From IMG/VR virus record IMGVR_UViG_3300029725_000197: a stretch of 64,000 nt of DNA. The stretch is one strand, 5' to 3'. This document shows, in pieces, positions 8,580 to 60,394 of the stretch. Numbering within the stretch: position 1 is the first letter of the stretch; every line of letters begins with the position of its first letter. Source of the stretch: a virus. Its lineage: Duplodnaviria > Heunggongvirae > Uroviricota > Caudoviricetes. The translations under genes and the position numbers were made by a program. The notes under the pieces were generated by a model. It had not been told where the DNA came from, did not search any database, and was given only the letters and a program-made list of their open reading frames with translations.

Positions 8580-8602
8580 CTTTTTTTTCTGATTTTGGGT
8601 GC

Positions 8603-8717
8603 TTTGTAGCATGTAGCTGGTTTGTAGCCGAGATTTCATAACCTTTTTTATTATTACTTTCTTTTATAGCTTTCTTATATAAAATTCAGCTACATGGTTG
8701 CTACATGCTACATGAGT
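8603..8717. repeat. ori-like region: inverted and direct repeats of GTAGCATGTAGC / TTTGTAGC flanking a ~60-bp AT-rich core
   Basis: 8604-8629 TTTGTAGCATGTAGCTGGTTTGTAGCC and its reverse complement at 8688-8717 CAGCTACATGGTTGCTACATGCTACATGAG. Lies directly 3' of the primase gene. Confidence 0.5.
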
Positions 8718-8852
8718 TGAGAAGAAGAAAGGAAAATAAGAGAATGAACGGAAACCATGAACAGAGACAGGGCAGGCAGTCTTTGTGGGAGCCTATTTTT
8801 GGGCAAGGGCAAAGGCGGCCTGCTTTGTGATACATGAAAGAGAGGACAGAAC

Positions 8853-10983: not shown

Positions 10984-11203
10984 GAAAATTATCGGTGTGT
11001 ATCCGATGTTCAACACCGGGGGTATCTGTGTACATGCGATTGACGATGCGGAAGATAAGGTCCTGGCATCTGTGAATGGGGAAAACCCGGAATGGTGCGA
11101 GATGGCTGAACAGCCGCAGGAAGATGGAGATGAAATGGAGTCGGGCTTTTTGTTCGACTCCTTTTTCGTGCCGTTTTCAGGGGTCATTCGCATGGGAATC
11201 TGA
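10976..11203 (+). CDS. hypothetical small acidic protein (GTG start)
   Basis: RBS AAGGAGG 10 nt before GTG 10976. 75 aa, fills the gap to the methyltransferase gene. Confidence 0.3.
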   Translation: MSKKIIGVYPMFNTGGICVHAIDDAEDKVLASVNGENPEWCEMAEQPQEDGDEMESGFLFDSFFVPFSGVIRMGI

Positions 11204-11219
11204 ATTAGGAGGAACCTAC

Positions 11220-12491: not shown

Positions 12492-14610
12492 ACAGCTGAC
12501 CCTCGGCAGCCTCTTTGATGGCTCCGGGGGTTTTCCATTGGGCGGGCTTTTGACCGGGCAGATCACTCCGGTGTGGAGCAGTGAGATCGAGCCGTTTGCC
12601 ATCCGAGTCACGACCAAGCGTCTGCCGCAGGTGAAGCATTATGGAGATGTGTCTGCTATCAGCGGTGCAGACCTACCTCCTGTAGACATCATCACTTTTG
12701 GCAGTCCCTGTCAGGATATGTCCATCGCGGGTAAGCGGGACGGTCTGGATGGTTCACGGTCCAGCCTGTTTTACGAAGCAATCCGAATCGTGAAGGAAAT
12801 GAGGTGTAAGACCAATGGAGAAAAACCAAGATTTATCGTGTGGGAGAATGTGCCAGGGGCCTTCTCCTCAAACAAAGGACAGGACTTCAAAGCAGTCCTC
12901 GAAGCCGTCATCGGTGTTAAAGAACCGGCCGCCTCGGTGCCTGCGCCTGAGAAGAAAGGATGGTCCGACGCTGATTACTACGTGGGAGACGGATGGAGCG
13001 TCGCGTATCGAGTTTTTGATGCACAATGGTGGGGCGTTCCCCAAAGAAGAAAACGTATCTATCTTGTCGCAGATTTTGCAGACCAGAGTGCCCCAAAGAT
13101 ATTATTTGAGTCCGAAGGCGTGTCTCGGTATTCTGCGGAGGGCTTCCGTGCGTGGCAAAGAGCTGCCGCCGGTGCTGAAAGCGGCGCTGGAGAGACAGGC
13201 TGCAGTGGAGCAGGAGGACGGCTCTGTCTGAACGATCAGGGCGGAGAGAGGATGGATGTGACGGAGGAGGTGACAGCCACCCTCCGTGCGGAGGCACATC
13301 ATCCGCCGTGTGTTATGGAAGCCGCTGGTTTCTGTACCGAGCATTCCGCAAATGCCAGAAGCATTGGATACGAAGAGGAACGGTCACCGACCCTCCGGGC
13401 TGGTGTCGTGCCGGCCGCCATCGCACTGGAAAATCATCCTGCGGACAGCCGGGTGAAGATTTCCGAGGACGGTAAGGTACAGACACTGACAAGCCGGTGT
13501 GGTACGGGTGGCGGTAATGTCCCGATGGTCATGGACGCTGTTGAAAATTCAGTGGAAAGCCCGGTGAAAGAAGTTGAAAACTCTCCGGCGGTCACATTGA
13601 AGATCCGTTCCGGGTGTGAAGGCGGTGGCAAGGGCGCTATCTGGCAGGAAGAAAAGTCAGCTACCCTCGGCTGCAACAACGACCAGACACTGTTCGTTCC
13701 GAAATGCTACGGTGTCTGCTCTAAAGCCAGCCACTCCATGATGTCCGATAATCCGCATAGCGGCTTCTATGAAGCGGAGACCTCCCGGACACTAGACCGC
13801 AGTGGTGGAGATCCGACCTGCAATCAGGGTGGTATCTGCGTGGTAGAGCCGGTCGCCTTTACCCAGAACCAGAGGGATGAAGTCCGAGATCTTGGAGAAA
13901 AGTCAGCGGCACTTGCAGCAGAGCCGGGGATGAAGCAGCAGACCTTCGTCCTGCAGGGCAACATGATCGGCCGCAAGGATGAGAACGGTCCGAAAGGGGA
14001 TGGCGTCAATGAGGATGTCTGCTTCACCTTGGACGCGACAGACCGCCATGCAGTCTGCGCACCGGAGGATGTGTATGCCATGACCACCGGCTCCTATATG
14101 CAGGTGGCAAAAGAGGTCGCACCGACTCTGATGGCACGGGACTACAAAGACCCGACCACCATCGCACCGGTGCCGCATCTGAACGAGGGTGTCATGGGAA
14201 CGGTGGCAACCGGGGCGCATCCAAGCGGCTTCAACGGGCAGGATGCTTTCAATGACCGTCTGGTCATCGATAACCCGGAAGCGCAGCCGATACCTGTGAC
14301 CTATACCGTCCGCCGCTTGACACCGACCGAGTGTGCTAGACTGCAGGGCTTCCCGGACTGGTGGTGCCGGAACCTTGGAACAGAAGATCCGACCGAAGAA
14401 GAGCTGGCGTTCTGGGCAGATGTGTTTGAAACGCACCGCAAGATCGTGACCCACGCCAAGAAGCCGAAAACGGAGAAACAGATCCGGAAATGGCTGGCTG
14501 ACCCGTATACGGATTCGGCAGAGTACCGTATCTGGGGCAACGGCATATGCCTGGCCAACGCATTTTTTGTTCTGGCAGGCATCGCATGGTGTGCAGGTCT
14601 GGAAGAATAA
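12481..14610 (+). CDS. DNA (cytosine-5)-methyltransferase, unusually large (709 aa; multi-TRD candidate)
   Basis: Motifs FDGSGG (I), GSPCQDMS (IV), ENVPG (VI), QWWGVPQRRKRIY (VIII) and a C-terminal 'RLTPTECARLQGFPDWW…GNG' (IX/X). About 400 aa of variable region lie between VIII and IX. Confidence 0.85.
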   Translation: MENKQLTLGSLFDGSGGFPLGGLLTGQITPVWSSEIEPFAIRVTTKRLPQVKHYGDVSAISGADLPPVDIITFGSPCQDMSIAGKRDGLDGSRSSLFYEAIRIVKEMRCKTNGEKPRFIVWENVPGAFSSNKGQDFKAVLEAVIGVKEPAASVPAPEKKGWSDADYYVGDGWSVAYRVFDAQWWGVPQRRKRIYLVADFADQSAPKILFESEGVSRYSAEGFRAWQRAAAGAESGAGETGCSGAGGRLCLNDQGGERMDVTEEVTATLRAEAHHPPCVMEAAGFCTEHSANARSIGYEEERSPTLRAGVVPAAIALENHPADSRVKISEDGKVQTLTSRCGTGGGNVPMVMDAVENSVESPVKEVENSPAVTLKIRSGCEGGGKGAIWQEEKSATLGCNNDQTLFVPKCYGVCSKASHSMMSDNPHSGFYEAETSRTLDRSGGDPTCNQGGICVVEPVAFTQNQRDEVRDLGEKSAALAAEPGMKQQTFVLQGNMIGRKDENGPKGDGVNEDVCFTLDATDRHAVCAPEDVYAMTTGSYMQVAKEVAPTLMARDYKDPTTIAPVPHLNEGVMGTVATGAHPSGFNGQDAFNDRLVIDNPEAQPIPVTYTVRRLTPTECARLQGFPDWWCRNLGTEDPTEEELAFWADVFETHRKIVTHAKKPKTEKQIRKWLADPYTDSAEYRIWGNGICLANAFFVLAGIAWCAGLEE

Positions 14611-15911: not shown

Positions 15912-16067
15912 GCTCCCAAGCCCCCAATGGGGGCCGGAAAATAAGTGAGACCCTCTTCAATTGTACCGATATTAACTCTGAAAATGTACATTATCAAGCA
16001 GATAAACCGCAGAAATGTACACGATCATTCTGCCTCATATTTGTCGAATATATGTTCTTTTATATCC

Positions 16068-16130
16068 TTGCTATTATCCGCACCTGACGGTAATATGCAC
16101 ATACCGAAAGGGAAAACAAGGAAAAAACAA
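16068..16130 (+). promoter_or_regulatory. promoter cassette copy P7 (TTGCTA-17-TAATAT gcacataccgaaaggg)
   Basis: -35/-10 elements with 17-nt spacing and the conserved leader, upstream of the amidoligase gene. Confidence 0.5.
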
Positions 16131-16143
16131 AGGAGAACATACC

Positions 16144-17082
16144 ATGAACGATAAAACAAGAGAGCAGATTGAAGCCATGAAAAACCAGACCATCGGAGTT
16201 GAGATCGAGATGAACAACATCACCAGAGAAAAAGCGGCAAGAAAGGTTGCCGAGTACTTCGGAACCAGAGCATGGAACGCCGCCAGCGAGTACGGATATT
16301 ACAGCTGGGCTTGCAAGGATGGACAGGGCAGGGTTTGGAAATTCCAGAGGGATGTGAGCATCTACGGACCGGACGCAGAAAAATGCGAACTGGTCACCCC
16401 GATCCTCACCTACGACGACATCGAATCCCTGCAGGAAATCATCCGGCTGCTCCGCAAGGCAGGCGCAAAGAGCAGTCCAAGCCGCGGATGCGGGGTCCAC
16501 ATCCACATCGGCAAAGGCGACCACACCGCAAAGACCATCCGCAACCTTGTGAACATCATGGCGGCACACGAACAGCAGATCGGCAGAGCCATCCGGATCG
16601 ACGCAGGGCGTACCGGACAATATTGCCGGGTAGTCGAGCACCGCTTCCTCGACCGGCTGAACCGCGAGAAGCCGACCACCATGCGCAAGCTGGAAGACAT
16701 CTGGTACGAAGGCAACGGTTCCAGCTGGGAAAACCGGAATGCCCACTACAATTCAAGCCGGTACCATATGCTGAACCTCCATGCCACCTTTACAAAAGGA
16801 ACCATTGAATTCCGCCTTTTCCAATTCGCAGACCCAGCGGACGGAAAGCGTAACGGACTGCATGCCGGTGAGATGAAAGCCTACATCCAGCTTTGCCTCG
16901 CAATGAGCCAGCTTGCCAAGATGGTCAGAACGGCAAGCCCGAAGCCTCAGCAGACCGACAACGACAAATACGCAATGCGGTGCTGGATGCTCCGGCTGGG
17001 ATTCATTGGTGAGGAGTTCGCAACGGCAAGGGAAATCCTTCTGCGGAATATGGAGGGCAACGCAGCATGGCGCAACAAATAA
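16144..17082 (+). CDS. putative amidoligase (carboxylate-amine ligase, Pfam Amidoligase_2-like)
   Basis: 'IGVEIEMN', 'GCGVHIHIG' and 'GTIEFRLFQ' motifs typical of the phage amidoligase family. 312 aa. Confidence 0.65.
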   Translation: MNDKTREQIEAMKNQTIGVEIEMNNITREKAARKVAEYFGTRAWNAASEYGYYSWACKDGQGRVWKFQRDVSIYGPDAEKCELVTPILTYDDIESLQEIIRLLRKAGAKSSPSRGCGVHIHIGKGDHTAKTIRNLVNIMAAHEQQIGRAIRIDAGRTGQYCRVVEHRFLDRLNREKPTTMRKLEDIWYEGNGSSWENRNAHYNSSRYHMLNLHATFTKGTIEFRLFQFADPADGKRNGLHAGEMKAYIQLCLAMSQLAKMVRTASPKPQQTDNDKYAMRCWMLRLGFIGEEFATAREILLRNMEGNAAWRNK

Positions 17083-30984: not shown

Positions 30985-31599
30985 ATGTCGAAGCAAAGCA
31001 ATAAGGTCAAATTTGGCCTGAAAAACTGCCATTATGCAAAGGCAACCTTTGACGAAGATGGCAGTGTCACTTACGCAAAGCCGGTCCGCATCCCCGGTGC
31101 AGTCAGTCTTTCTATGGATGCTAATGGCGAGATCGAGCCGTTCTATGCGGACAATATCGCCTACTATGTCGTGAATAACAACTCCGGCTACGAGGGTGAT
31201 CTGGAGATCGCGCTGATCCCGGAGAGCTTCCTCACGGACATCATGCACGAGGAACTGGATGGCAACGGTGTGCTTGCGGAGAACGCCAATGTGGAACTGG
31301 AGCATTTCGCCTTCCTGTTCGAGTTCGATGGCGATCAGCGTCACATCCGTCATGTGCTGTACAACTGTGTGGCAAGCCGTCCGTCCATTGAGGGTGAGAC
31401 CAATGAGGACAGCAAGGAAGTCAAGACGGACACCCTGAACCTGCAGGCAACCCCTCTGGCAAACGGTTATGTCAAGGCAAAGACCGGTACTAACACCACC
31501 GATGATGTCTATAACAAGTGGTACGATGCGGTCTACGAGCCGCAGGCAGAAGCTGTGGACACCGAAGACACCAGCCACACCGAGGAGCCGCAGGGCTAA
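30985..31599 (+). CDS. major tail protein (phi13 family)
   Basis: 'KVKFGLKNCHYAKATFDEDGSVTYAKPVRIPGAVSLS' phi13-MTP N-terminus. Confidence 0.75.
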   Translation: MSKQSNKVKFGLKNCHYAKATFDEDGSVTYAKPVRIPGAVSLSMDANGEIEPFYADNIAYYVVNNNSGYEGDLEIALIPESFLTDIMHEELDGNGVLAENANVELEHFAFLFEFDGDQRHIRHVLYNCVASRPSIEGETNEDSKEVKTDTLNLQATPLANGYVKAKTGTNTTDDVYNKWYDAVYEPQAEAVDTEDTSHTEEPQG

Positions 31600-31633: not shown

Positions 31634-31661
31634 TTACATTATTATAAAGAGGTATATGACT

Positions 31662-32489
31662 ATGAAGAAGATTTTTCCTTTGTTCGCAGTGATCATCGTT
31701 CTGGTACTGGCTGTCTGCTCGTTCCACATCATCCCCACCGGTTACACGGGCGTGAAGACCAGCTTCGGCCAGATCCAGGAGACCACCATCCAGAGCGGCA
31801 AGCTCAACTTCTGCATCCCCTTTGTGCAGAGCATTCACAAGGTCAACAACAAGCAGCAGGATAAGCACATCGAAGCACAGGTCTGGGGCGAAGCCTCTGA
31901 CAAGACCCCTGTGTATGCTGCTGATGTCATCGTGACCTATCAGGTGCTTCCTGAGAAGAGTGCATGGCTGTATGCGAATGTGTCCGACATCAAGAATCTG
32001 GTCGGTGACGAGCTGGTGGCATCGGCAATCAAGTCTGCAATGGCTGAACTTGGCCCCAATGAGGTAACCAACCGCACCAAGATCGAGCCTCTGGCACAGC
32101 AGAAGCTGGCAGAGTCCCTTGTGCAGAAAGATGGTGAGGACGTTGTGTTCGTAAACAAGGTCGTCATCAACGACATGAATTTCGAGGATGCCTATAACGA
32201 AGCCATCCAGCAGAAGTCCATTGCACAGCAGAATGCAGATAAGCAGAAGATCGAGAATGAAGCCGCCATTGCCAAAGCAGAAGCGGATAAGCAGGTGGCG
32301 ATCACCAATGCAGAGGCGGAAGCCCAGAAGACCTCCATTGCCGCAGATGCACAGGCAGAGGCAAACCGTAAACTGGCAGAAAGCCTGTCCGATACGCTGA
32401 TCGATTACCAGAAGGTTCAGAAGTGGGATGGAAAGCTGCCCACTGTGAGTGGCGGTAATGCACTGGTCAGCATTGACCCGGCAGAGTAA
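31662..32489 (+). CDS. SPFH/band-7 (prohibitin/HflK-like) membrane protein, moron
   Basis: N-terminal TM 'IFPLFAVIIVLVLAV', then 'IIPTGYTGVKTSFGQIQ…' SPFH core and a C-terminal Ala/Glu-rich coiled coil. RBS AAAGAGG upstream. Confidence 0.75.
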   Translation: MKKIFPLFAVIIVLVLAVCSFHIIPTGYTGVKTSFGQIQETTIQSGKLNFCIPFVQSIHKVNNKQQDKHIEAQVWGEASDKTPVYAADVIVTYQVLPEKSAWLYANVSDIKNLVGDELVASAIKSAMAELGPNEVTNRTKIEPLAQQKLAESLVQKDGEDVVFVNKVVINDMNFEDAYNEAIQQKSIAQQNADKQKIENEAAIAKAEADKQVAITNAEAEAQKTSIAADAQAEANRKLAESLSDTLIDYQKVQKWDGKLPTVSGGNALVSIDPAE

Positions 32490-32503
32490 GAAACACGATA
32501 TAC

Positions 32504-32523
32504 GGCAGGGCTTCGGCTCTGCC
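32504..32523 (+). terminator. UUCG-loop hairpin GGCAGGGC-TTCG-GCTCTGCC (copy 2) + AATTTTACAT
   Basis: Exact repeat of the 31615 hairpin, bracketing the SPFH gene. Confidence 0.45.
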
Positions 32524-32555
32524 AATTTTACATGAAATTTTGGAGGATTACGATT

Positions 32556-32936
32556 ATGGCAGTTACAAAGAAAATCGAGATCGATGGCAAGGAAGTCACC
32601 TTTAAGGCAAGTGCCGCTGTGCCTCGCCTGTACCGTATCAAGTTCGGCCGTGACATCTACAAAGACCTGCGTCAGCTGGAAAAGAGCGTGGGAGAGAATG
32701 ATGAGGACAATTCCAACCTCGACCTGTTCAGTCTGGAAATGTTCGAGGACCTGGCATGGCTGATGGCCCGTCATGCAGACCCGGCAAAGGTGCCGGACAG
32801 CCCGGAGGAGTTCCTGGACCAGTTCAACACCTTCTCCATTTATCAGATCCTGCCCCAGCTGATCGAACTGTGGGGTCTGAATGTGCAGACCGAGGTGGAA
32901 TCCAGAAAAAACCTCGCAAAAGTGAGCGGGAAATGA
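32556..32936 (+). CDS. tail assembly chaperone (gpG-like)
   Basis: RBS GGAGGA before ATG 32556. Standard position before the tape measure gene. Slippery site near the 3' end. Confidence 0.7.
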   Translation: MAVTKKIEIDGKEVTFKASAAVPRLYRIKFGRDIYKDLRQLEKSVGENDEDNSNLDLFSLEMFEDLAWLMARHADPAKVPDSPEEFLDQFNTFSIYQILPQLIELWGLNVQTEVESRKNLAKVSGK

Positions 32937-33097
32937 CCACCCCGCTCTTTCTGCTGCGCTGTGTACAGCTCGGTATCAGCATCGCCGACCTCGATCTGCT
33001 GACCATCGGGTTGGTCAATGATATGTTCACGGAACGGCAGAACGACGACTATCCGTACAAAGAGCTAGCTTCGCAAAGTGATTTTGACAAATTTTGA
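32556..33097 (+). CDS. tail assembly chaperone -1 frameshift product (gpGT-like), shift at A_AAA_AAC 32906-32912
   Basis: Heptamer A AAA AAC in the 0 frame. The -1 frame stays open to 33097 (…KPRKSEREMTTPLFLLRCVQ…SDFDKF*). Confidence 0.6.
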
Positions 33098-33111
33098 CAG
33101 AATAAAACTCG

Positions 33112-33159
33112 ACGAGCGTGCATATATTAAACATGAAATAAGCACGCTCGTTTGATTTT
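33112..33159 (+). terminator. terminator (ACGAGCGTGC…GCACGCTCGT TTGATTTT)
   Basis: Perfect 10-bp inverted repeat with a 20-nt loop plus T-run. It also carries the ATAAGCACG half-sites. Confidence 0.45.
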
Positions 33160-33161
33160 AC

Positions 33162-33205
33162 TTGACTATCGTGCTTATTTCGATTACAATATAAGCACGG
33201 AAGGA
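33162..33205 (+). promoter_or_regulatory. abiE promoter (TTGACT-16-TACAAT) with ATAAGCACG / CGTGCTTAT operator half-sites
   Basis: Near-consensus -35/-10. Half-sites at 33139, 33170 and 33197 overlap the promoter, as expected for AbiEi autoregulation. Confidence 0.55.
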
Positions 33206-33215
33206 TGGTGATTCT

Positions 33216-33800
33216 ATGAATGAGATGACAAGATTAGTTCAAAATCATGATTACCTTACGCCGAGAATTGCGGAAAAATCTGGAATTTCAAAATTTAAGT
33301 TTTACAAATATGTTCGAGAAAACGGATTGGAGCCGGTCAGCCGTGGTGTTTATTCTACGGGAGCGGATTGGGTCGATGAGTTGTATGTGCTTCATAAGAG
33401 ATGTCCGAATGCTGTTTTTTCACATGACGAGGCTTTTTATTATCATGGTCTGACAGACAGAGAACCATTTGTCCACACACTTACCATATACAGCGGTTAC
33501 AATGCGCATCGGCTTACAGCGGATGGAAGTTGTAAAGTATATACGGTAAAACGGGAATTACTGGATGTCGGAAAGATCATTGTGAAAGACAATGATGGGA
33601 ATATGATTCCGATGTATGACCTGGAACGAACGATTTGTGATCTGATGAGAAGTCGGAGCAGTATTGAAGCACAGGATTTCAATTCCGTTCTGAAGACATA
33701 TGTTTCCAGAAGAGACAAGGATCTGAATCGACTTATGGAATATGCAAAGTTGTTTCGGGTTGATAATGTAATCCGAAGATATATGGGGGTATTATTGTAA
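33216..33800 (+). CDS. abiEi: AbiEi antitoxin / transcriptional regulator (type IV TA, abortive infection)
   Basis: 194 aa, AbiEi_4-like N-terminal wHTH. Adjacent to a DUF1814 nucleotidyltransferase. AT-rich (~40 % GC). Confidence 0.7.
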   Translation: MNEMTRLVQNHDYLTPRIAEKSGISKFKFYKYVRENGLEPVSRGVYSTGADWVDELYVLHKRCPNAVFSHDEAFYYHGLTDREPFVHTLTIYSGYNAHRLTADGSCKVYTVKRELLDVGKIIVKDNDGNMIPMYDLERTICDLMRSRSSIEAQDFNSVLKTYVSRRDKDLNRLMEYAKLFRVDNVIRRYMGVLL

Positions 33801-33801
33801 A

Positions 33802-34641
33802 ATGCAGCTGACACCTGAACAGGTTAAGGGAAGAATTAAGAATGTGGCAAAGGAAAACAAGGCAGATGCCAGAACGCTCATGCGAATTTATATGATGGAG
33901 CGTTTCCTTGAGAGAGTTGCCAATTCGCAGTATAAAGATAATTTTATCATCAAAGGCGGAATGCTGGTGACAGCAATGGTTGGCGTAGCATTGCGGTCCA
34001 CGATGGATATCGATACGAGTATTAAAAATCAGAATCTGTCGGCAGAAGATGCCAGACGGATTGTGGATGAAATCAAGGACATCGACCTTGGCGATGGAGT
34101 GAACTTTGAGGTTAAGGAAGTTTCCAATATCATGGATGAAATGGAATATCCGGGTATTCGGTTTACCATGAATGCCGTGATGGGAAAACTCGTTACACCG
34201 ATGAAAATTGATATTTCTACAGGAGATGTTATCACGCCAAGAGCAATCGAGTACAACTATAAATTGCTCTTGGATGACCGTTCCATCAGCCTTTGGTCGT
34301 ATAATTTGGAAACCATTCTGGCAGAAAAACTTCAGACGGTCCTTGCAAGAGGTCTTTTGAATACCCGAATGAGAGACTTCTATGACATCAAGACACTGCT
34401 TTCTATTTACGAGCAGGACATCGATGCTGATGTGCTGAAAAAGGCATTTGAGGCAACCTGTAAGAAAAGAAGCACCGAAAATCTGAAAGAGGAAGCACCC
34501 AAAATTATGGCTGCCGTCAGTGATGACGCACAGTTACATACACTTTGGAAGTCCTACCAGAAGAAATATCCGTATGCTGCTGATATCAGCTATGAGGATA
34601 TTATGGAGAGCACAATGCTCTTATGGAGTAAAATTCAATAA
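33802..34641 (+). CDS. abiEii: AbiEii toxin (nucleotidyltransferase, DUF1814)
   Basis: 279 aa. 'FIIKGGMLVTAM…STMDIDTS' NTase fold motifs. Start is 1 nt after the abiEi stop. Confidence 0.7.
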   Translation: MQLTPEQVKGRIKNVAKENKADARTLMRIYMMERFLERVANSQYKDNFIIKGGMLVTAMVGVALRSTMDIDTSIKNQNLSAEDARRIVDEIKDIDLGDGVNFEVKEVSNIMDEMEYPGIRFTMNAVMGKLVTPMKIDISTGDVITPRAIEYNYKLLLDDRSISLWSYNLETILAEKLQTVLARGLLNTRMRDFYDIKTLLSIYEQDIDADVLKKAFEATCKKRSTENLKEEAPKIMAAVSDDAQLHTLWKSYQKKYPYAADISYEDIMESTMLLWSKIQ

Positions 34642-34753
34642 TCGGTAGCAACCCCGTTGGAGAAATCTGACGGGGTATTTTTATACCCATTTTTAGCCTG
34701 TCTGCCCCGTGCAGATGGGCTTTTTTCATGCCTGCAAGGAGGTGGTTACGCAA

Positions 34754-37700
34754 ATGGCATCCAGAATCCAGGGCATCACCGTTGAGATTGGCGGCGATAC
34801 CACAAAGCTCTCCAAAGCACTGGAAAGTGTAAACAAGTCAATCAAGGGGACGCAGTCCGGACTGAAGGATGTCAACAAACTCCTGAAACTGGACCCCTCC
34901 AATACAGAACTGGCTGTCCAGAAGCAGAAGATGCTTAAGGATGCCATTGAAGCTACCAAGGAAAAGCTGGCAACTCTGAAGACTGCGGCACAGCAGGCGA
35001 ATGAGCAGCTTGCCAATGGTGAGATCACCCAGCAGCAATATGATGCCCTCCAGCGTGAGATCGTGGAGACCGAACAGAATCTGCGATCCTTACAGGACCA
35101 GGCGGCTACTACCAATGCAACTCTTGCCAAAATCGATGAAGCCGGAGAAAAGCTCCAAAACATCGGATCTTCTGTGGAGAATGTCGGTAAGAAGTTCCTG
35201 CCGGTGACTGCCGCTGTAACGGGTCTTGGTACGGCAGCAGTAAAAACCGCAGCCGATTTCGATTCCGAGATGAGTAAGGTATCTGCCATTTCCGGTGCGA
35301 CCGGGGATGACTTTGACCAGCTCCGTGCGAAAGCCCGTGAAATGGGTGCGAAGACCAAGTTCTCTGCATCCGAGGCAGCTTCGGCGATGGAATACATGGC
35401 CATGGCCGGATGGAAGACTTCTGACATGCTGAACGGCATCGAGGGCGTCATGAACCTCGCGGCCGCTTCGGGTGAAGACCTCGCTACGACTTCAGATATT
35501 GTTACCGATGCCCTTACCGCGTTCGGCTTATCCGCTGCGGATTCTGGGCATTTTGCCGATATCCTCGCAGCCGCTTCCTCCAATGCGAACACCAACGTCT
35601 CCATGATGGGCGAGACGTTCAAGTACTGTGCGCCTATTGCCGGTGCGCTGGGGTTCTCGGCAGAGGATACCGCAGAAGCCATCGGACTTATGGCAAACAG
35701 TGGTATCAAGGCTTCACAGGCTGGTACTTCCCTTCGTACCATCATGAATAACCTTTCCGGTGAAGTGACCTTTGTGGGTAAAAACATCGGTGAGGTCACG
35801 ATTGCAACCAGCAATGCAGATGGCAGCATGAGAAGCCTGAACGACATCCTTGCAGACTGCCGTGTGGCATTCTCCGGGCTGTCGGAATCTGAGAAGGCCG
35901 CCAACGCAGAGGCATTGGTCGGCAAGAATGCGATGTCCGGCTTTCTTGCCCTGATGAATTCCAGCCAGTCGGATATCGATAAATTAAGCAGTGCCATTGA
36001 AAACTGCGATGGCGCATCTGAGAGCATGGCAGAGACCATGCAGGACAATTTAAATGGTCAGCTCACCATCCTGAAATCTCAGCTGGAGGAGCTGGCTATT
36101 TCTTTTGGCGATATCCTGATGCCGACCATCCGTAAGATCGTATCTGCCGTGCAGCAGTTCGTGGACAAGCTCAACAGCATGGATGAAAGTACCAGGGAAA
36201 CGATCATCAAGATCGGACTTCTGGCAGCATCCATCGGTCCGCTGCTCATTGTGCTGGGTAAGACCATATCGACCGTCGGCACAGCGATGCGGGGATTCAG
36301 TTCTCTTGCAAAGGGTGTCCGGCTTCTTATCACCCATGTGGGCAGTGCCAGCGGTGTGTTCAGCAAGCTGGGTGTGGTTCTGGGTGGTCTGTCCGGGCCG
36401 GTCGTAGCAGTGGTGGCGGTCATCGGCACACTGGTGGCGGCGTTCATGAACCTCTGGAATACGAACGAGGAGTTCCGTACTGCCATTACCGGTATCTGGA
36501 ACGACATCGTTTCAAAGGTGAAAGGCTTCTGCGATCAGCTGACACAGCGGATCAACGGGCTGGGCTTTGACTTCAAGGATGTCACCGAGGTACTGAAAGC
36601 TGTCTGGGATGGCTTCTGTCAGGTGCTTGCACCGCTGTTTGAGGGAGCTTTCCAGAATATTGCCACCATCCTCGGCGTTGTTCTGGATACGCTACTTGGT
36701 CTGTTCGATGTCTTTTCCAATGTGTTCTCCGGCAACTGGAGCGGCGCATGGGAAGCGGTAAAGGGTATCTTTTCCAGCATCTGGGATGGCGTGAAGTCCA
36801 TTTTCTCCACGACCCTTACTGCTCTGAAGAGTGCGCTGGATGTGTTCCTTGGGCTGTTCGGTACGGACTGGCAGACGGTCTGGGGCAGTATCAAGAGCTT
36901 CTTCGAGACTGTGTGGAGTGGAATCAGCAGCTTCTTTTCAAACACAGTTTCCGCTATCCAAAGTGTAGCAACGACTGTATTTACAGCAGTGTCTGGATTT
37001 TTCACCACCGTCCTTACGAGTATCCAGACGACCTTCAGCACCATCTGGACTGCCATTTCCACAGCAGTTTCTTCTGTGCTGAATACGATCCATACCACGG
37101 TGACAACTGTGTGGACGGCAATCTCGACCGCAATCTCTACGGTCATGAACTCCATCAGTACGACGATTACTTCGGTGTGGAACGGCATCTACAACACCAT
37201 GAAACCTCTGCTGGATGCGTTCAAATATCTGTTTGAGACCATCTGGCAGGCAATCCAGATCCTGATCGGCGCAGCACTGACCGCGATCCAGACGAAGATC
37301 ACTTCCATCTGGAACGCCATCGTCGCTTTTGTGACTCCGATGTTGACCAGATTGCAGACGACTTTCTCTACAGTTTGGTCAGCGATTCAGACAGCCATCT
37401 CCACGGTGCTGACAGCAATCCAGACCGCAGTGACGACGGTATGGAATGCCATTGTATCGTTCTTGACTCCGCTGCTGACTGGCATTCAGACCCGGATGAG
37501 TACGGCATGGAATGCGATCAAGACGGTCATTTCGACTGTCCTTTCTGCGATTCGGTCCACGGTTTCTTCTATCTGGACTGCCATCAGCAGCAAGATCTCC
37601 GGTGTGGTAAATGGCATCAAATCGGTGGTTTCTTCCGGCTGGAATGCCATGAAGTCCACGGTATCGTCCCTCAGTAACAGCATCAAAAGTGCGGCGACCA

Positions 37701-40663
37701 CAGCTTTTAATTCCATGAAATCCGGGATTTCCTCTACGATCTCCGGTATCAAGACCACCATCACGAACGGCTTTAACAGTGCAGTTTCCTTTATCAAGGG
37801 GTTGGCTGGACAGGCATTCTCGTGGGGCTCTGACATGATCGGCAACATTGTGTCCGGTATCCAGTCGAGGATTCAGGATGTGGCAAGTGCTGTATCGGGA
37901 GTGGCAGACCGTATCCGTTCCTTCCTGCACTTCTCTGTGCCGGATGAAGGACCTCTGGCAGATATGGAAAGCTGGATGCCGGACTTCATGCAGGGTCTGG
38001 CAAACGGTATCACGACCAACACCAGCCTTGTGACTGCGGCGGCGGAGAACCTGTCCACCACGCTGTCTACCTCCATCACCAACTCCATGAGGGGTGTGGA
38101 GCAGGCATACAGTAAGAGCTGGGCCGCCATCAGCCAGACGGTGAAAACCGGAACGGCAGGTGTAAGTGCTGCGATGAGATCCGCATGGAGTTCCATTACG
38201 ACCAGTACCACCAGCACATGGAATACCATCAAGTCCAGTATCCAGAACAGCTTCTCGGCGGTGAAATCCAATGTGACCTCTGCGACAGCAGCAGTGAAAA
38301 CGTCCATGACCAGTGCATGGAATGCGGTGAAGTCGCTGACAACGACCAGCTGGAACGGAATTAAAATGGTCATTACCACAGCGTGGAACGGGATTAAATC
38401 CCTTACCACCTCTGCGACCGCTTCTGTAAAAACGTCCATGACCAGCGCATGGAATGCGGTGAAAAACCTGACAAATACCAGCTGGAATGGTATCAAAACA
38501 GTCATCACGACTGCATGGAACAGCATCAAGAGTCTTACAACTTCCTCTGTATCCGCAGTTCGCAGTACGGTCACAAGCGGCTGGAACACACTGAAATCTA
38601 CCACGACCTCTGCCTTCAACAGCATCAAGTCCACGGTGTCTTCGGCAATGTCCAGCCTGCGCAGCACGGCTTCTTCCGGTGTTGCAAGTATCAGGAGCAG
38701 TTTTAACTCGCTCGGTTCGATTGCTTCTTCGGCATACCGCTGGGGTGCAGATATCTGTTCCCAGATGGCGTCAGGTGTCCGGGCAGCAGCCGGTTCCGTG
38801 ATCGCAGCGGCAGAAAATGTCGCAAGCAGGGTCAGAAGTCTGCTGCATTTCTCTGTACCAGATGAAGGACCTCTGTCCGATGCAGATACCTATATGCCGG
38901 ACTTCATGAAGCTGCTGGCGACCGGCATTAAGAAAAATGTCAAGTCGGTGGTGAAAGCCGTGCAGGGACTTGCCGGGTCTATGAGCAACAACCTCACGAC
39001 CCCGGTAGATTCTCTGGGCGACTGGATGGATTCCGTGGTCGGCAGTTTTGCTACCACGATCAAGAAAAGTCAGAGCGGTATCGGTAGTGCTGCAAGGGAT
39101 GTGGGCAGCGGTATCCAGTCCCAGTTGATGTCCGGGCTTTCCGGTCTGAAAACACAGTTCCAGCAGATCTGGACTGACCTGCAGGGTATCACCAAAACCG
39201 CAGTCGGCGGCATGAGCGATGAAGTGAAGCAGGGCTTTGCGGATATGAAGGATTCCGTTGGAGAGCTGAGTTCTCAGACCAGTTCTCTTGGAAATGCGAT
39301 CCGCAGTCTTGGCGATACCTTCAACTCGGATTTCCTAAAGAGCCTGGGCAACGGCATCAGCAAGGTCGGTGACACGGTCAATACGGTCACGGGGCTTGTG
39401 GACAAGCTCGGCTCCATGAAGAACACCATCGGAAATCTCGGAAATACGATGCAGAACCTTGGCAATGTCCTCGGTACAGAGAACGGCGGTGGTCTGTTGT
39501 CCAACATCGGAGATTTCTTGTCGAAGATCGGCAGTGCAGATGGAGGTCAGATCGTGTCGAAGTTTGGCAATCTGATCTCTGGGCTGACCTCTAAAATGGG
39601 CGGTCTGGGAGAGGGAATCTCCGGCATCATCTCGAAGCTGGGAAGCCTTGGCTCCAGCGGTGGGGGAATCCTGTCGAATCTGGGCGGGCTGCTTTCTGGT
39701 GTAGTGTCGAAGATCGGCGGCTTAGGTGGCAGTCTTTCTGGGCTTCTGTCTGGTGTGGGTTCCACATTGGGCGGAATTGCTGGTTTTGCCGGTTCCGCAA
39801 TGGCAGGACTGTTCGGCTCGGTTGGCACGACCGTATCCGGTCTGGCTGCTGGTGCGGGATCGGCTCTGGCTGGTATCGCTTCCTCGGCCGGAGGAGTGCT
39901 TGCTTCGGCAGGTACAGCACTTGCCGGTCTTGCCGGTCCTGCAGGTATCGCAGTGGCAGCAGTTGGTGGCATCGGTCTTGGACTGACGAGCCTCTGGAAA
40001 AACTGCGATGGCTTCCGGGAAGGTGTCACAAATATCTGGAACAAGGTTACGTCGGTATTCTCGAATGGAGTAAACGCCATCAAGAACGGTATTTCTAATG
40101 CGGCTTCTGCTATTGGCAATGTGGCATCGTCCATCTGGGGCGGTATCAAGAACGTGGCTTCTTCGGCAGTCAGCTGGGGCAAGGACATCGTTGGCGGTAT
40201 CGCGGGCGGCATCAAGAAAGGCGTGAGCTGGGTCGGCAATGCGGTCAAGAGTGTGGCAAATGGCATCCGCTCGTTCCTGCACTTCTCTGTGCCGGATGAA
40301 GGGCCGCTGGCAGATGCCGACACCTATATGCCCGACTTCATGAAGCTGCTTTCCGGCGGCATCAAGAAAGGCGAAGGCGGACTGATCAGCCAGATCAGGT
40401 CGATGGCAGCAAAGGTACAGCAGGGTATGGAGGGCATCAGCTCCTTCAGTCTGCCGGAACTGACCTTGCCACATTTCGATGGCTCCGGCTGGAACTTCCC
40501 GCAGGCGGCTCTGGCCGGAGGTGGCACCACCCGGACGACCAACCTTGGCGGTGTGTATATCACAGTCAACGGTTATAATGCCCGGAACGACGATGAACTC
40601 GCACAGACCGTTGCCGATAAGATCAACGGCATGATCCATGAGGATGATTCGGTCTTCAAGTAA
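34754..40663 (+). CDS. tail tape measure protein (1969 aa)
   Basis: RBS AAGGAGGTGG before ATG 34754. TP901-like TMP core ('SKVSAISGATGDDFDQLR…MEYMAMAGW'), long internal tandem repeats (TS.WN.IKS…), and three 'FLHFSVPDEGPL(A/S)D…MPDFM' modules. Confidence 0.85.
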   Translation: MASRIQGITVEIGGDTTKLSKALESVNKSIKGTQSGLKDVNKLLKLDPSNTELAVQKQKMLKDAIEATKEKLATLKTAAQQANEQLANGEITQQQYDALQREIVETEQNLRSLQDQAATTNATLAKIDEAGEKLQNIGSSVENVGKKFLPVTAAVTGLGTAAVKTAADFDSEMSKVSAISGATGDDFDQLRAKAREMGAKTKFSASEAASAMEYMAMAGWKTSDMLNGIEGVMNLAAASGEDLATTSDIVTDALTAFGLSAADSGHFADILAAASSNANTNVSMMGETFKYCAPIAGALGFSAEDTAEAIGLMANSGIKASQAGTSLRTIMNNLSGEVTFVGKNIGEVTIATSNADGSMRSLNDILADCRVAFSGLSESEKAANAEALVGKNAMSGFLALMNSSQSDIDKLSSAIENCDGASESMAETMQDNLNGQLTILKSQLEELAISFGDILMPTIRKIVSAVQQFVDKLNSMDESTRETIIKIGLLAASIGPLLIVLGKTISTVGTAMRGFSSLAKGVRLLITHVGSASGVFSKLGVVLGGLSGPVVAVVAVIGTLVAAFMNLWNTNEEFRTAITGIWNDIVSKVKGFCDQLTQRINGLGFDFKDVTEVLKAVWDGFCQVLAPLFEGAFQNIATILGVVLDTLLGLFDVFSNVFSGNWSGAWEAVKGIFSSIWDGVKSIFSTTLTALKSALDVFLGLFGTDWQTVWGSIKSFFETVWSGISSFFSNTVSAIQSVATTVFTAVSGFFTTVLTSIQTTFSTIWTAISTAVSSVLNTIHTTVTTVWTAISTAISTVMNSISTTITSVWNGIYNTMKPLLDAFKYLFETIWQAIQILIGAALTAIQTKITSIWNAIVAFVTPMLTRLQTTFSTVWSAIQTAISTVLTAIQTAVTTVWNAIVSFLTPLLTGIQTRMSTAWNAIKTVISTVLSAIRSTVSSIWTAISSKISGVVNGIKSVVSSGWNAMKSTVSSLSNSIKSAATTAFNSMKSGISSTISGIKTTITNGFNSAVSFIKGLAGQAFSWGSDMIGNIVSGIQSRIQDVASAVSGVADRIRSFLHFSVPDEGPLADMESWMPDFMQGLANGITTNTSLVTAAAENLSTTLSTSITNSMRGVEQAYSKSWAAISQTVKTGTAGVSAAMRSAWSSITTSTTSTWNTIKSSIQNSFSAVKSNVTSATAAVKTSMTSAWNAVKSLTTTSWNGIKMVITTAWNGIKSLTTSATASVKTSMTSAWNAVKNLTNTSWNGIKTVITTAWNSIKSLTTSSVSAVRSTVTSGWNTLKSTTTSAFNSIKSTVSSAMSSLRSTASSGVASIRSSFNSLGSIASSAYRWGADICSQMASGVRAAAGSVIAAAENVASRVRSLLHFSVPDEGPLSDADTYMPDFMKLLATGIKKNVKSVVKAVQGLAGSMSNNLTTPVDSLGDWMDSVVGSFATTIKKSQSGIGSAARDVGSGIQSQLMSGLSGLKTQFQQIWTDLQGITKTAVGGMSDEVKQGFADMKDSVGELSSQTSSLGNAIRSLGDTFNSDFLKSLGNGISKVGDTVNTVTGLVDKLGSMKNTIGNLGNTMQNLGNVLGTENGGGLLSNIGDFLSKIGSADGGQIVSKFGNLISGLTSKMGGLGEGISGIISKLGSLGSSGGGILSNLGGLLSGVVSKIGGLGGSLSGLLSGVGSTLGGIAGFAGSAMAGLFGSVGTTVSGLAAGAGSALAGIASSAGGVLASAGTALAGLAGPAGIAVAAVGGIGLGLTSLWKNCDGFREGVTNIWNKVTSVFSNGVNAIKNGISNAASAIGNVASSIWGGIKNVASSAVSWGKDIVGGIAGGIKKGVSWVGNAVKSVANGIRSFLHFSVPDEGPLADADTYMPDFMKLLSGGIKKGEGGLISQIRSMAAKVQQGMEGISSFSLPELTLPHFDGSGWNFPQAALAGGGTTRTTNLGGVYITVNGYNARNDDELAQTVADKINGMIHEDDSVFK

Positions 40664-53288: not shown

Positions 53289-53335
53289 TTGCTATAAGTG
53301 CCGGATAGAGCAAATATGTCACTACCCGAAGATAG
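53289..53335 (+). promoter_or_regulatory. promoter cassette copy P10 (TTGCTA-17-AAATAT gtcactacccgaag) upstream of recombinase genes
   Basis: Diverged copy. Followed by the perfect 8-bp hairpin TTTTCCTT-tcgg-AAGGAAAA at 53361-53380. Confidence 0.4.
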
Positions 53336-53402
53336 GAAAAGGCGGTGGCATTACCACACGTTTTCCTTTCGGAAGGAAAATCTGACGAAAGGAGAGGACG
53401 AT

Positions 53403-55505
53403 ATGGATTCAAATGCTTTTCTGAATGATCTTATGTCAAAGATGAAGCTGCCGGAAGCAAAAGGAAAGAAAAAGGCAGAACAGAATGAATCGGTGGCGCA
53501 GATTCTTGCCGCCATGCAAAAAGTCAGGGCTGAGAAAAAGAAGCCGCCCGTAACCAGCTATGCACCAGTAAAAGAAATGCTGGTGAATGAGCCAGAGAGT
53601 ATGGAAGAATTCTCCCAGCTCGCATCCGATGTGATGCAGGAATGCCGGCCAGCAATGCCGACGGTGAAAACATCAATTTCAGAGAAGGCTGTTCGGGTTG
53701 CCGCATATATCCGTGTTTCCTCCACCAATCCGGCACAGGAAGATTCGTATGAAATGCAGGAACGCTACTTTATGTCACTCCTGGCAGGAAATGCGGGATG
53801 GACATCTGCCGGCATTTATTCCGATCATGGCATTTCCGCAACAAGCAGGGATGGACGGACAGGATTTAACCGGTTGCTCCGGCACTGCAAGCAGGGGAAG
53901 ATTGACCGTGTGATCTGCAAGTCCATCAGCCGTTTTGCCCGAAACACGCAGGACTTTCTTGTGGCATTGCGGACTTTAAAGGAAAACAATGTCACGATCC
54001 TGTTTGAGCGGGAAGCGATGGATACAGCGGATGCTTACAGCGAGTTCATTCTTACTACGCTGGCCGCCATTGCCCAGGAAGAGAGCCGTTCGATTTCAGC
54101 AAACATTGCATGGAGCAATCAGAAACGGTTTCCGGCCGGAAATGTCTGCAACAAGGATATCTACGGATACGAATTCCGCAAAGGGGAGTATACAGTGAAC
54201 GAGAACGGATACCGATACCGGGCAGTGTTCATCATCCCGGAAGAAGCAGAGATTGTTCGGATGGTGTTCCGGCTTTTTACAAAAGAAGAATTAGGCTTCA
54301 CACAGATCGCCCAGAAGCTGGATGCCCTGCATATCCCGCCGCCGAACAGCGGATGCAGACAGCGGCAAAAGCGGAAACCGACTGTGCTGCCAGCTGGCAC
54401 ACTAAAGGAAGAAGATAAGCGGGGGTGGACGGCAACGGATGTTCGGTACATGATCGCAAACGTTCGTTACTGCGGTTCTGTACTTTGTCAGAAGACCTAC
54501 ACCGATCACAGGAATGGGCATAAACAGAAGGTCAATAAGGGGGAAAAGCCGAAATACCTGATACGAAATCATCATCCGGCTATCATTTCGGAAGAATTGT
54601 GGCAGGAAGCACAGGAAGTCTGGAAGGCATACACGGCAAAGTACAGGGGTATTGAAAAAGGAAGAAACGAAAGAAACTATTCCAAGCTCCTGCTGTGTGG
54701 AAAATGCGGACGGTATTTTCAAGGCCATTCCACAACAAGGACAACCATCTGGCGGTGTGCGACGAAGCTCGCCCAGCAGGGACTGAAGCGCTGCCGAATG
54801 GAACCGATTTATGAAGAGCAGATCCAGACGCTGCTTTGCAAAGCATTTGCCGAAAAATTCAAGCTGGGTGAGGAGATGGATGCAGAAGTTCATGAGGTCA
54901 TGCAGATGATCTCCAAAGCACCCATTGATAATGCGAGAAATCAGGCATTAAAGAACCTGACTGAGAAGCTGAGAGAGATCCATGATTTCGACCATATGGA
55001 GCAGGAAGGGGATTTTCTGAAACGCCAGCTGTCTGCAGTGAACTATAGCATTCGGGATGTCCACCAGCACATTCGGGATATTCAGGCGGAAAAAGAAGCA
55101 TTGAAAGTGCGATGTGAGGTGCTGGGAGAACCGAGAGATAAAGAAGCAGTCACAGAGTTAGAAAACCGACTTCTCAATGAAGAAGAACAGCTGGAGAAGC
55201 TGGAACATGAAGCCCAGCAACAGGCCGAACAGGTTCGGTACATGGAAGATTACTGGAAGAAGCTGGAGCAGACCCATGAAATCCGGGAGAAAACGCTGCA
55301 GTGGTTGGATTCGCTGGCGGGAGGGACGCAGATGTTTCTGGATGAAGCAGTTGGAACGTATGTGAAAGCCTTTGTGCTTTCCGTTACCATTTTTTCACCG
55401 AAACATTTTAGAATCCACTGGTTTGATGACACCTGTACGGAAGTGGAGTGTGACAGCGTATTTGAGGGCTATCAGCAGCCTGGCATGATAAGGAGGAAGT
55501 ATTGA
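53403..55505 (+). CDS. large serine recombinase 1 (integrase candidate)
   Basis: 'VAAYIRVSSTNPAQEDSYEMQ' catalytic Ser region, resolvase N-domain, recombinase domain, and a Zn ribbon (CGKCGRYF…CATK). RBS GGAGAGGA upstream. Confidence 0.85.
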   Translation: MDSNAFLNDLMSKMKLPEAKGKKKAEQNESVAQILAAMQKVRAEKKKPPVTSYAPVKEMLVNEPESMEEFSQLASDVMQECRPAMPTVKTSISEKAVRVAAYIRVSSTNPAQEDSYEMQERYFMSLLAGNAGWTSAGIYSDHGISATSRDGRTGFNRLLRHCKQGKIDRVICKSISRFARNTQDFLVALRTLKENNVTILFEREAMDTADAYSEFILTTLAAIAQEESRSISANIAWSNQKRFPAGNVCNKDIYGYEFRKGEYTVNENGYRYRAVFIIPEEAEIVRMVFRLFTKEELGFTQIAQKLDALHIPPPNSGCRQRQKRKPTVLPAGTLKEEDKRGWTATDVRYMIANVRYCGSVLCQKTYTDHRNGHKQKVNKGEKPKYLIRNHHPAIISEELWQEAQEVWKAYTAKYRGIEKGRNERNYSKLLLCGKCGRYFQGHSTTRTTIWRCATKLAQQGLKRCRMEPIYEEQIQTLLCKAFAEKFKLGEEMDAEVHEVMQMISKAPIDNARNQALKNLTEKLREIHDFDHMEQEGDFLKRQLSAVNYSIRDVHQHIRDIQAEKEALKVRCEVLGEPRDKEAVTELENRLLNEEEQLEKLEHEAQQQAEQVRYMEDYWKKLEQTHEIREKTLQWLDSLAGGTQMFLDEAVGTYVKAFVLSVTIFSPKHFRIHWFDDTCTEVECDSVFEGYQQPGMIRRKY

Positions 55506-60381: not shown

Positions 60382-60394
60382 GAGGAACTATAGA

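Follow-up and report, generated by a model that had tools for sequence, protein, structure and literature searches.

An operon of the AbiE toxin-antitoxin and abortive-infection family lies within the tail genes of a Caudoviricetes virus, IMG/VR record IMGVR_UViG_3300029725_000197. The stretch of DNA analysed, called the window throughout, is 64,000 nucleotides long and by profile matches represents a full temperate siphophage, with terminase, portal, tail genes, lysin and large serine recombinases. The operon consists of abiEi, for an antitoxin and transcriptional repressor, followed by abiEii, for a DUF1814 nucleotidyltransferase toxin. A first-pass annotation, made from the letters of the window, had placed the pair between a frameshifted tail assembly chaperone gene and the tape measure gene, and the coordinates of the locus agree with this placement:

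32532-32936, + strand: tail assembly chaperone gene, short product (G-like), 134 aa; open reading frame (ORF) following the tail tube gene
32906-33097, + strand: -1 frameshift extension of the chaperone (T-like part); slippery A_AAA_AAC at 32906-32912, stop TGA at 33095-33097
33098-34679, + strand: whole add-on (moron) cassette, 1582 bp, delimited by homology breaks against relatives; GC about 0.41
33112-33151, no strand assigned: distal inverted repeat IR-A, with half-sites CGTGCATAT at 33117-33125 and ATAAGCACG at 33138-33146, upstream of the -35 box
33162-33190, + strand: predicted cassette promoter; -35 box TTGACT (33162-33167), 17-nt spacer, -10 box TACAAT (33185-33190)
33170-33199, no strand assigned: proximal inverted repeat IR-B, CGTGCTTAT-N12-ATAAGCACG, an exact palindrome
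33216-33800, + strand: abiEi, antitoxin and transcriptional repressor, 194 aa (PADLOC and PDB matches)
33802-34641, + strand: abiEii, DUF1814 nucleotidyltransferase toxin, 279 aa (Pfam, PADLOC and PDB matches)
34651-34686, + strand: predicted cassette terminator, 11-pair stem (34651-34676) followed by ATTTTTATAC; -18.3 kcal/mol
34695-34727, + strand: backbone hairpin (34695-34721) with T-run, directly upstream of the tape measure ribosome-binding site; -17.1 kcal/mol
34754-40663, + strand: tape measure gene, 1,970 aa; likely start ATG at 34754 after AAGGAGG

The two genes are clear AbiE members

By every sequence-level criterion, the pair belongs clearly to AbiE. The AbiEii protein matches the Pfam family PF08843 (AbiEii/DUF1814, COG2253) with an E value of 1.3e-41 (143.6 bits against a cutoff of 22.5) and the PADLOC AbiEii model at 1.8e-99, and it aligns with the Streptococcus agalactiae toxin structure 9HLO_B at 2e-48 across residues 16-272. 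AbiEi matches the PADLOC AbiEi model over its full length (1e-63) and the S. agalactiae structures 6Y8Q and 9HLO_A across residues 9-190 (1.8e-18). These matches assign it to the AbiEi/COG5340 antitoxins, a family defined by a winged helix at the N-terminus and an antitoxicity domain at the C-terminus. The two genes are co-oriented, antitoxin first, and are separated by a single nucleotide between the abiEi stop codon (33798-33800) and the abiEii ATG (33802), as in a bicistronic operon.

Alignment of AbiEii to 9HLO_B locates all four motifs of the toxin family (I-IV): G52 G53, x15, R65, D69-I-D71, K176...R183 and R191-D192-F-Y-D195. In the S. agalactiae protein, mutation of R63, D67, D69, K173, R180 or D192 abolishes toxicity. 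These residues correspond to R65, D69, D71, K176, R183 and D195 here; all six are identical, and the GG-x15-DxD spacing is kept. The phospho-acceptor T65 of S. agalactiae AbiEii is likewise conserved, as T67. The earlier naming of the pair as an AbiEi-like regulator and a DUF1814 toxin is therefore borne out by family models, solved structures and the residues on which toxicity depends.

The cassette also differs from its surroundings in base composition. A GC and codon-usage profile, as the first-pass annotation had proposed, gives a cassette GC of 0.40-0.42 and a third-position GC (GC3) of 0.37-0.48 (abiEi 0.398 and 0.37; abiEii 0.423 and 0.48), compared with 0.52-0.54 and 0.64-0.68 for the tail genes (chaperone gene 0.516 and 0.68; tape measure gene 0.539 and 0.64). 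The bin of lowest GC in the window, whose mean is 0.516, is the 1560-bp bin starting at 33051. Cassette GC lies about 12 points under that of the flanks. The contrast described earlier, roughly 40% against 56%, was right as to the low GC, which is the window minimum, but its flank value was slightly high, the immediate flanks having 51-57%.

Homologues of AbiEii are found in 16 of 50,697 deposited phage genomes, none with more than 42% identity. No donor can be named for the cassette, because its DNA has no match among GenBank phages or PLSDB plasmids.

The chaperone-tape measure junction in related phages

A search with the chaperone protein as query yielded 160 loci, of which the IMG/VR part comprises the best 80 of 228 matches. 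Close relatives were defined as loci with a chaperone 94-100% identical and flanking DNA 92-97% identical to the window, a set of about 71. Their junction takes the following forms:

Empty, 79 bp (locus L032): 1 locus
AbiEi and AbiEii: 9 loci, and the window
Phd/YefM and ParE, minus strand: 20 loci
DUF3791 and DUF3990 sets (PADLOC candidate PDC-M13), minus strand: about 18 loci
Abi_2/AbiD, minus strand: 9 loci
ATPase_2-DUF234 protein (PDC-S27), plus strand: 7 loci
AbiEi (94% identical), HTH protein and DUF6036 nucleotidyltransferase: 3 loci
AbiEi and Phd/ParE, one of the two with a group II intron: 2 loci
RelB/YoeB: 1 locus
HicA/HicB: 1 locus

A DUF3800 cargo, too, is found between flanks that are 92-97% identical. 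Throughout this set, the cargos have a GC of 0.38-0.45, and they fall into at least 12 clusters. AbiE, AbiD, PDC-M13, PDC-S27 and the ParE/Phd, YoeB/RelB and HicAB pairs among them rank as known or candidate anti-phage systems. In distant relatives (chaperone 60-80% identical) the junction is mostly empty, at 53-250 bp in 27 distinct sequences. Where filled, it holds Abi_2, DUF3800, Phd/Doc, Fic, a NERD protein, MazG or SUKH, and also cargo unrelated to defence, such as a streptomycin adenylyltransferase (ANT(6)), a nitroreductase and an FMN reductase.

The comparison with relatives that had been proposed for the pair, as a moron and not a part of the tail module, thus finds the junction empty or filled by unrelated cassettes between flanks that are 92-97% identical. 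The moron reading was to be given up if all relatives carried both genes at normal GC; empty sites, sites with other cargo and low GC are found instead. Because close relatives have this junction empty or differently filled, the comparison of loci identifies it as a hotspot for moron and defence cargo, and the same loci show the cassette to be dispensable for the phage. We found no published description of this particular hotspot, although our coverage of the literature is incomplete and absence from it is no proof.

Five of the close relatives (L041, L065 and L071, with a cargo of about 2.3 kb, and L001 and L011) retain an abiEi that is 93-94% identical while abiEii has been exchanged, either for an HTH protein and a DUF6036 nucleotidyltransferase, the latter with no PADLOC match, or for a Phd/ParE pair. 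The L011 cargo also holds a group II intron reverse transcriptase. Among the distant relatives, L106 (about 6543-9600), from a Lachnospiraceae metagenome-assembled genome, has at the junction three genes, one of them for a streptomycin adenylyltransferase (Pfam PF04439, 3e-112), and thus an antibiotic-resistance gene inside a phage tail operon. In L122-L145 and other distant relatives, plus-strand cargos open with a near-consensus extended -10 promoter, TGATTGACT-N17-TGCTATAAT, that overlaps the chaperone stop codon and lies within the first 40 or so nucleotides after it, which suggests a recurring 'plug-in' design for add-ons.

Boundaries, age and selection

Homology between the window and relatives with an empty site or other cargo ends between 33066 and 33151 and returns between 34649 and 34692. 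Against the empty site, the left break falls at 33066, within the last codons of the chaperone extension. On the right side, homology to every variant has returned at the hairpin at 34695-34721. Measured against L032, the cassette replaces about 5-17 bp of the empty site. A target-site duplication and a recombinase were looked for within the cassette and neither was found, which ruled out a transposon. Cargo is probably swapped through homologous recombination in the conserved flanks.

The junction also holds AbiE in phages with flanks only 69-80% identical to those of the window, and there the cassette is 77-78% identical. In close relatives, the corresponding values are 93-99.6% for the cassette and 88-97% for the flanks. 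At synonymous sites, abiEi and abiEii have diverged to a similar extent as the chaperone gene. The ratio of nonsynonymous to synonymous rates (dN/dS) is 0.02-0.08 for abiEi and 0.03-0.16 for abiEii, as low as for structural genes. Judged by these measures, the pair is functional, under purifying selection and long resident in the lineage, with its low GC retained. Since AbiE occupies the site in diverged lineages and has diverged in step with the flanks, the comparison marks the cassette as foreign in composition yet not a recent arrival; it has co-diverged with the phage backbone.

A predicted promoter and two pairs of inverted repeats

The promoter TTGACT-17-TACAAT is the top match of a 5-kb scan, with 10 of 12 positions, and would start transcription near 33197. 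Both boxes had been noticed in the first-pass annotation, but their spacer is 17 nt long and not 16. A TTGACA pair at 33084-33099, over the chaperone stop codon, has no -10 partner and was not counted as a promoter.

The 9-mer ATAAGCACG/CGTGCTTAT occurs in three exact copies, with 0.32 expected by chance in the window, and a fourth half-site, CGTGCATAT (33117-33125), differs from it by one mismatch. Together these form two pairs of the pattern CGTGCWTAT-N12-ATAAGCACG, at 33117-33146 and 33170-33199, which lie 53 bp apart and of which none is expected by chance. Three half-sites overlapping the promoter had been described previously; the three exact copies exist, but the half-sites number four, arranged as two pairs, and the promoter is overlapped by the proximal pair alone. 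This proximal pair, IR-B, covers the spacer, the -10 box and the putative start site, and is presumed to be the site of AbiEi autorepression.

IR-A has a second layer of symmetry. Its outer arms form a 10-bp perfect repeat, ACGAGCGTGC (33112-33121) and GCACGCTCGT (33142-33151), followed by TTGATTTT, with an A-run on the other side. As RNA, the element would fold into a hairpin of -21.6 kcal/mol (z = -5.8). This repeat with its T-run had been taken for the terminator of the cassette. The repeat is real, but it lies upstream of the promoter as the outer part of IR-A, and the cassette's own terminator is at 34651-34676. Other plus-strand cargos (L054 and L001) have this last element (34651-34686) too.

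A further hairpin at 34695 is also found in the empty site of L032 (about 6131-6165), and other variants have a different hairpin and T-run in the same place. The 34695-34727 element is therefore a feature of the phage backbone and not of the cassette, and its interpretation as a second cassette terminator was dropped. It may attenuate transcription into the tape measure gene, whose product is needed in few copies. The three hairpins (IR-A, 34651-34676 and 34695) together probably insulate the cassette from the tail operon and attenuate transcription of the tape measure gene.

Palindromes of this kind accompany abiEi elsewhere. An exact palindrome of the IR-B type lies directly upstream of abiEi genes 66-71% identical to this one in unrelated contigs with no tail genes nearby, one beside three serine recombinases and one beside ribonucleotide reductase genes. 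A second, degenerate copy is found about 52 bp further upstream in three of four such diverged loci. This distribution supports the view that the palindromes are an AbiEi operator that travels with abiEi into other contexts. L208 has three serine recombinases in tandem that adjoin its abiE operon. A role for the palindrome as a general phage regulatory site was dropped, as the window has no other copy. About 12 other IMG/VR matches to the palindrome pattern that lack an adjacent abiEi proved to be unrelated longer palindromes or chance matches.

IR-A as operator, hairpin or both

Relatives with a cargo devoid of abiEi, namely the ParE, PDC-M13, AbiD, YoeB, HicAB and DUF3800 variants, have a homologue of IR-A directly behind the chaperone stop codon. 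These homologues share the upstream flank and a similar spacer. Their half-sites are invariant, although in part of the sample the search pattern itself dictated the core, and about half of the 12 spacer positions vary. The outer arms show compensatory changes: six pairs are altered on both sides, and one position occurs with four Watson-Crick pair types. The covariation score of the alignment was never attained in 500 shuffles and slid controls score far lower, for sequences that are related to one another. An Rfam search over 32400-34900 returned chance hairpin matches only, and IR-A is therefore not a described RNA family.

These observations bear on whether IR-A is an operator at all. It might act solely in RNA, as a hairpin or terminator at the end of the chaperone transcript, with its 9-mers shared through a 53-bp duplication. 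Such a reading draws on the stability of the hairpin and the A-run and U-run on its sides, on the persistence of the palindrome with compensating outer arms in phages without abiEi, and on the relatives that combine AbiEi with another toxin, which carry only the proximal operator unit. It fits less well with half-sites that stay constant while the spacer between them varies, with the second degenerate copy upstream of diverged abiE operons in unrelated contigs, with the two-pair operators known in the AbiEi family, and with the lack of a U-run after the hairpin in relatives without abiEi. We regard a hairpin-only IR-A as possible but doubtful. IR-A is probably both a hairpin or terminator after the chaperone gene and a distal AbiEi operator.

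The simplest account of the palindrome in phages without abiEi is that an ancestral abiE cargo left it behind, and that this relic has retained or acquired a function as a hairpin behind the chaperone gene. There is an outside chance that it is a functional element of the hotspot, either an orphan operator or a structured boundary hairpin. As an orphan operator, it could allow AbiEi from a co-resident relative to sense, or be titrated by, incoming sister phages, which would tie in with the proposal that phage DNA sequesters AbiEi and so triggers the toxin. As a boundary hairpin, it could permit cassettes on either strand to be swapped without disturbing expression of the tail genes.

A model for the function of the cassette

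We consider it quite probable that the AbiE operon is an autonomous toxin-antitoxin and abortive-infection moron that resides in a tail cargo hotspot of a temperate siphophage of gut Clostridia. The steps by which it would act can be proposed from the studied homologues of S. agalactiae, Lactococcus lactis and Mycobacterium tuberculosis. In a lysogen, the operon's own promoter would drive its transcription without any need for the late operon, and AbiEi would repress this promoter through IR-B and probably also through IR-A. AbiEi would furthermore bind AbiEii, induce its auto-phosphorylation (at T67 here) and block the nucleotidyltransferase. Upon infection by another phage, the toxin would be released and add nucleotides to tRNA 3' ends, such that translation stops and no phage is produced. 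The same pair may also stabilise the prophage.

The antitoxin mechanism bears on how the system is classed. The first-pass annotation called it a type IV system. This label stands as the classification of 2014, when AbiE was described as type IV and GTP-binding, but a 2026 preprint moves AbiE to type VII, with UTP as the preferred nucleotide and auto-phosphorylation of the toxin induced by the antitoxin.

Several observations weigh against the model of an autonomous abortive-infection moron. In E. coli, the AbiE of S. agalactiae did not protect against any of 32 coliphages, so that defence cannot be assumed of every AbiE. The cassette has the same orientation as the late operon, and read-through transcription is therefore possible. 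Many sister cargos are classical addiction modules, which fits stabilisation of the prophage as well as it fits defence. At the protein level, the searches proposed by the first-pass annotation succeeded with DUF1814/AbiEii and, for the antitoxin, with the PADLOC AbiEi model, but the short Pfam AbiEi_4 model gave a sub-threshold match (E = 0.012). The antitoxin loop D85-E86-I87, which the S. agalactiae AbiEi requires for complex formation, is only partly conserved, as D81-R82-E83, within a T-D-x-x-P context that is retained (TDREP here, TDEIP in S. agalactiae).

The pair could instead serve mainly for addiction or stabilisation, so that loss of the prophage is penalised, a function that is compatible with defence. 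AbiE stabilises plasmids, according to Dy 2014, as well as an integrative conjugative element of Streptococcus suis; the commonest sister cargos are type II toxin-antitoxin pairs (Phd/ParE, RelB/YoeB, HicAB and Phd/Doc); and the S. agalactiae system showed no defence in E. coli. Post-segregational killing is weakened as an explanation by reports that AbiEi is stable and not labile. AbiD, PDC-M13 and PDC-S27, which fill this junction in other phages, count as abortive-infection genes or defence candidates, and L. lactis AbiE does abort phage infection. On this balance, stabilisation as the main function is conceivable, though we think it less probable than not by a clear measure.

A role of the genes in the phage's own lytic cycle, for instance in shutting off host translation, with transcription as part of the late operon, appears very unlikely. 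The shared orientation would permit it, with the upstream and downstream hairpins as the sole barriers, but the cassette is dispensable and interchangeable with opposite-strand cassettes in sister phages, has its own consensus-like promoter with a putative autorepressor operator, and belongs to a family in which no member is known to serve the lytic cycle. Finally, that the pair belongs to the tail module as an integral and conserved component is hardly credible despite its presence in lineages about 20-25% diverged, in which it has co-diverged with the flanks: in the chaperone-based sample, AbiE is found in only about 9 of some 71 close relatives, the GC of the pair is about 12 points low, and the reading is refuted by the empty junctions (in one close relative and 27 distinct distant sequences) and by the more than 10 other cargos that fill the site.

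The phage and its other variable regions

The phage carrying the operon does occur as a prophage, because its close relatives sit in chromosomal scaffolds of Blautia, Clostridium fessum and Faecalibacterium isolates. About 80 IMG/VR loci, as well as isolates of these same three groups, have a chaperone that is 98-100% identical. Its -1 extension lies in an overlapping ORF (32756-33097) and is kept in relatives (TAC_T matches), and the tape measure N-terminus is 95-100% identical among them, with alignments beginning at residue 1. The remaining features are as follows:

First part of the window, in gene order: D5-type primase/helicase, SNF2 protein, SAM synthetase, two DNA methylases, amidoligase
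24112: large terminase
25977: portal, followed by the capsid
30985-31599: tail tube (Pfam PF06488)
31656-32489: SPFH/Band-7 membrane protein gene, between tail tube and chaperone
Downstream of the tape measure gene: tail tip proteins, lysin and two large serine recombinases (53298-57709)

The SPFH/Band-7 gene has its own terminator (32504-32523), a promoter-like site (32527-32554) and a normal GC of 0.53. It is missing in the close relatives L015 and L031 and in all distant relatives, and therefore marks a second add-on site in the same tail operon. At the end of the phage, the tandem pair of large serine recombinase genes is followed by an AAA_25 ATPase and a third serine recombinase (59401-62269). 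This region might represent another integrated element or an integration module with several recombinases. Genes for a SAM synthetase, a ParB-N6 methylase, a C5 methylase and an amidoligase lie in the early region (8853-9920, 11076-14610 and 16015-17082), likely counter-defence or DNA-modification functions in the same phage as AbiE.

Among the relatives, L083 and L084 are the tail loci of a Faecalibacterium intestinale and a Blautia faecis isolate. They are 99.44% identical over 12.4 kb, and the two genera belong to different orders. This identity reflects either a very broad host range or recent transfer, or else assembly contamination or mislabelling.

Comparison with known systems

The locus provides a natural example of AbiE on a temperate phage of abundant human-gut Clostridia, and it reveals that the classic HK97 moron position is a heavily used site for cargo in a group of gut phages that is very widespread. 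Near-isogenic phages that differ only in their cassette are a ready panel for candidate defence genes, including PDC-M13, PDC-S27 and the DUF6036 nucleotidyltransferase with its AbiEi-like partner. The same panel suits the question of how a prophage tolerates its own abortive-infection system.

The closest studied counterpart is the AbiE of S. agalactiae (6Y8Q; complex 9HLO). Both proteins align with it over nearly their full length (1.8e-18 and 2e-48), and it shares toxin motifs I-IV, the phospho-acceptor Thr and an antitoxin-first bicistronic operon. Its mapped promoter likewise has a 17-nt spacer, a short leader and inverted repeats over the promoter. The operators differ: two pairs of 9-bp core half-sites with 12-bp gaps, 53 bp apart, are present here, whereas S. 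agalactiae has one pair with 23-bp arms and a 3-bp gap. The loop reads DEI there and DRE here, the genes overlap by 4 nt there and are separated by a 1-nt gap here, and only the present cassette resides in a phage tail operon. The L. lactis AbiE of plasmid pNP40, the founding system for which abortive infection of phage was shown, is of the same two-gene family but is plasmid-borne, in contrast to the prophage-borne pair described here; the two are compared by description only.

The M. tuberculosis systems Rv2827c-Rv2826c and MenA/MenT also combine a COG5340-type antitoxin with a DUF1814 nucleotidyltransferase. MenT toxins modify tRNA and are controlled by phosphorylation, and Rv2827c binds four repeats arranged in two pairs, with a gap of about 13 bp within each pair. 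In this respect, the two-pair layout found here is closer to the four-repeat promoter of Rv2827c than to the single pair of S. agalactiae. These systems are chromosomal, however, and much more distant in sequence; a PDB search with AbiEii at E <= 0.01 recovered no MenT or Rv2826c chain.

With respect to position, the nearest parallel is gene 15 of HK97, the first moron, which lies between the chaperone and tape measure genes, with a GC unlike that of its surroundings and a promoter and terminator of its own. The HK97 prophage expresses this gene, and its product confers protection from other phages. The AbiE cassette shares the gene junction, the deviant GC and, by prediction, the promoter and terminator. 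It differs as a two-gene toxin-antitoxin pair, where the coliphage HK97 has a single small inner-membrane protein that blocks DNA entry, and in the present phage group the comparison of loci shows a multi-cargo hotspot at the site. Hotspots of P2-like phages and P4-like satellites, as described by Rousset et al. 2022, resemble this junction in having core genes around a variable, defence-rich site. The present one belongs to a siphophage of Clostridia, lies inside the tail operon, holds a different set of cargos and is known from sequence. The case adds to these known kinds, AbiE systems, morons at the HK97 position and hotspots of the P2/P4 type, and leaves current concepts unchanged.

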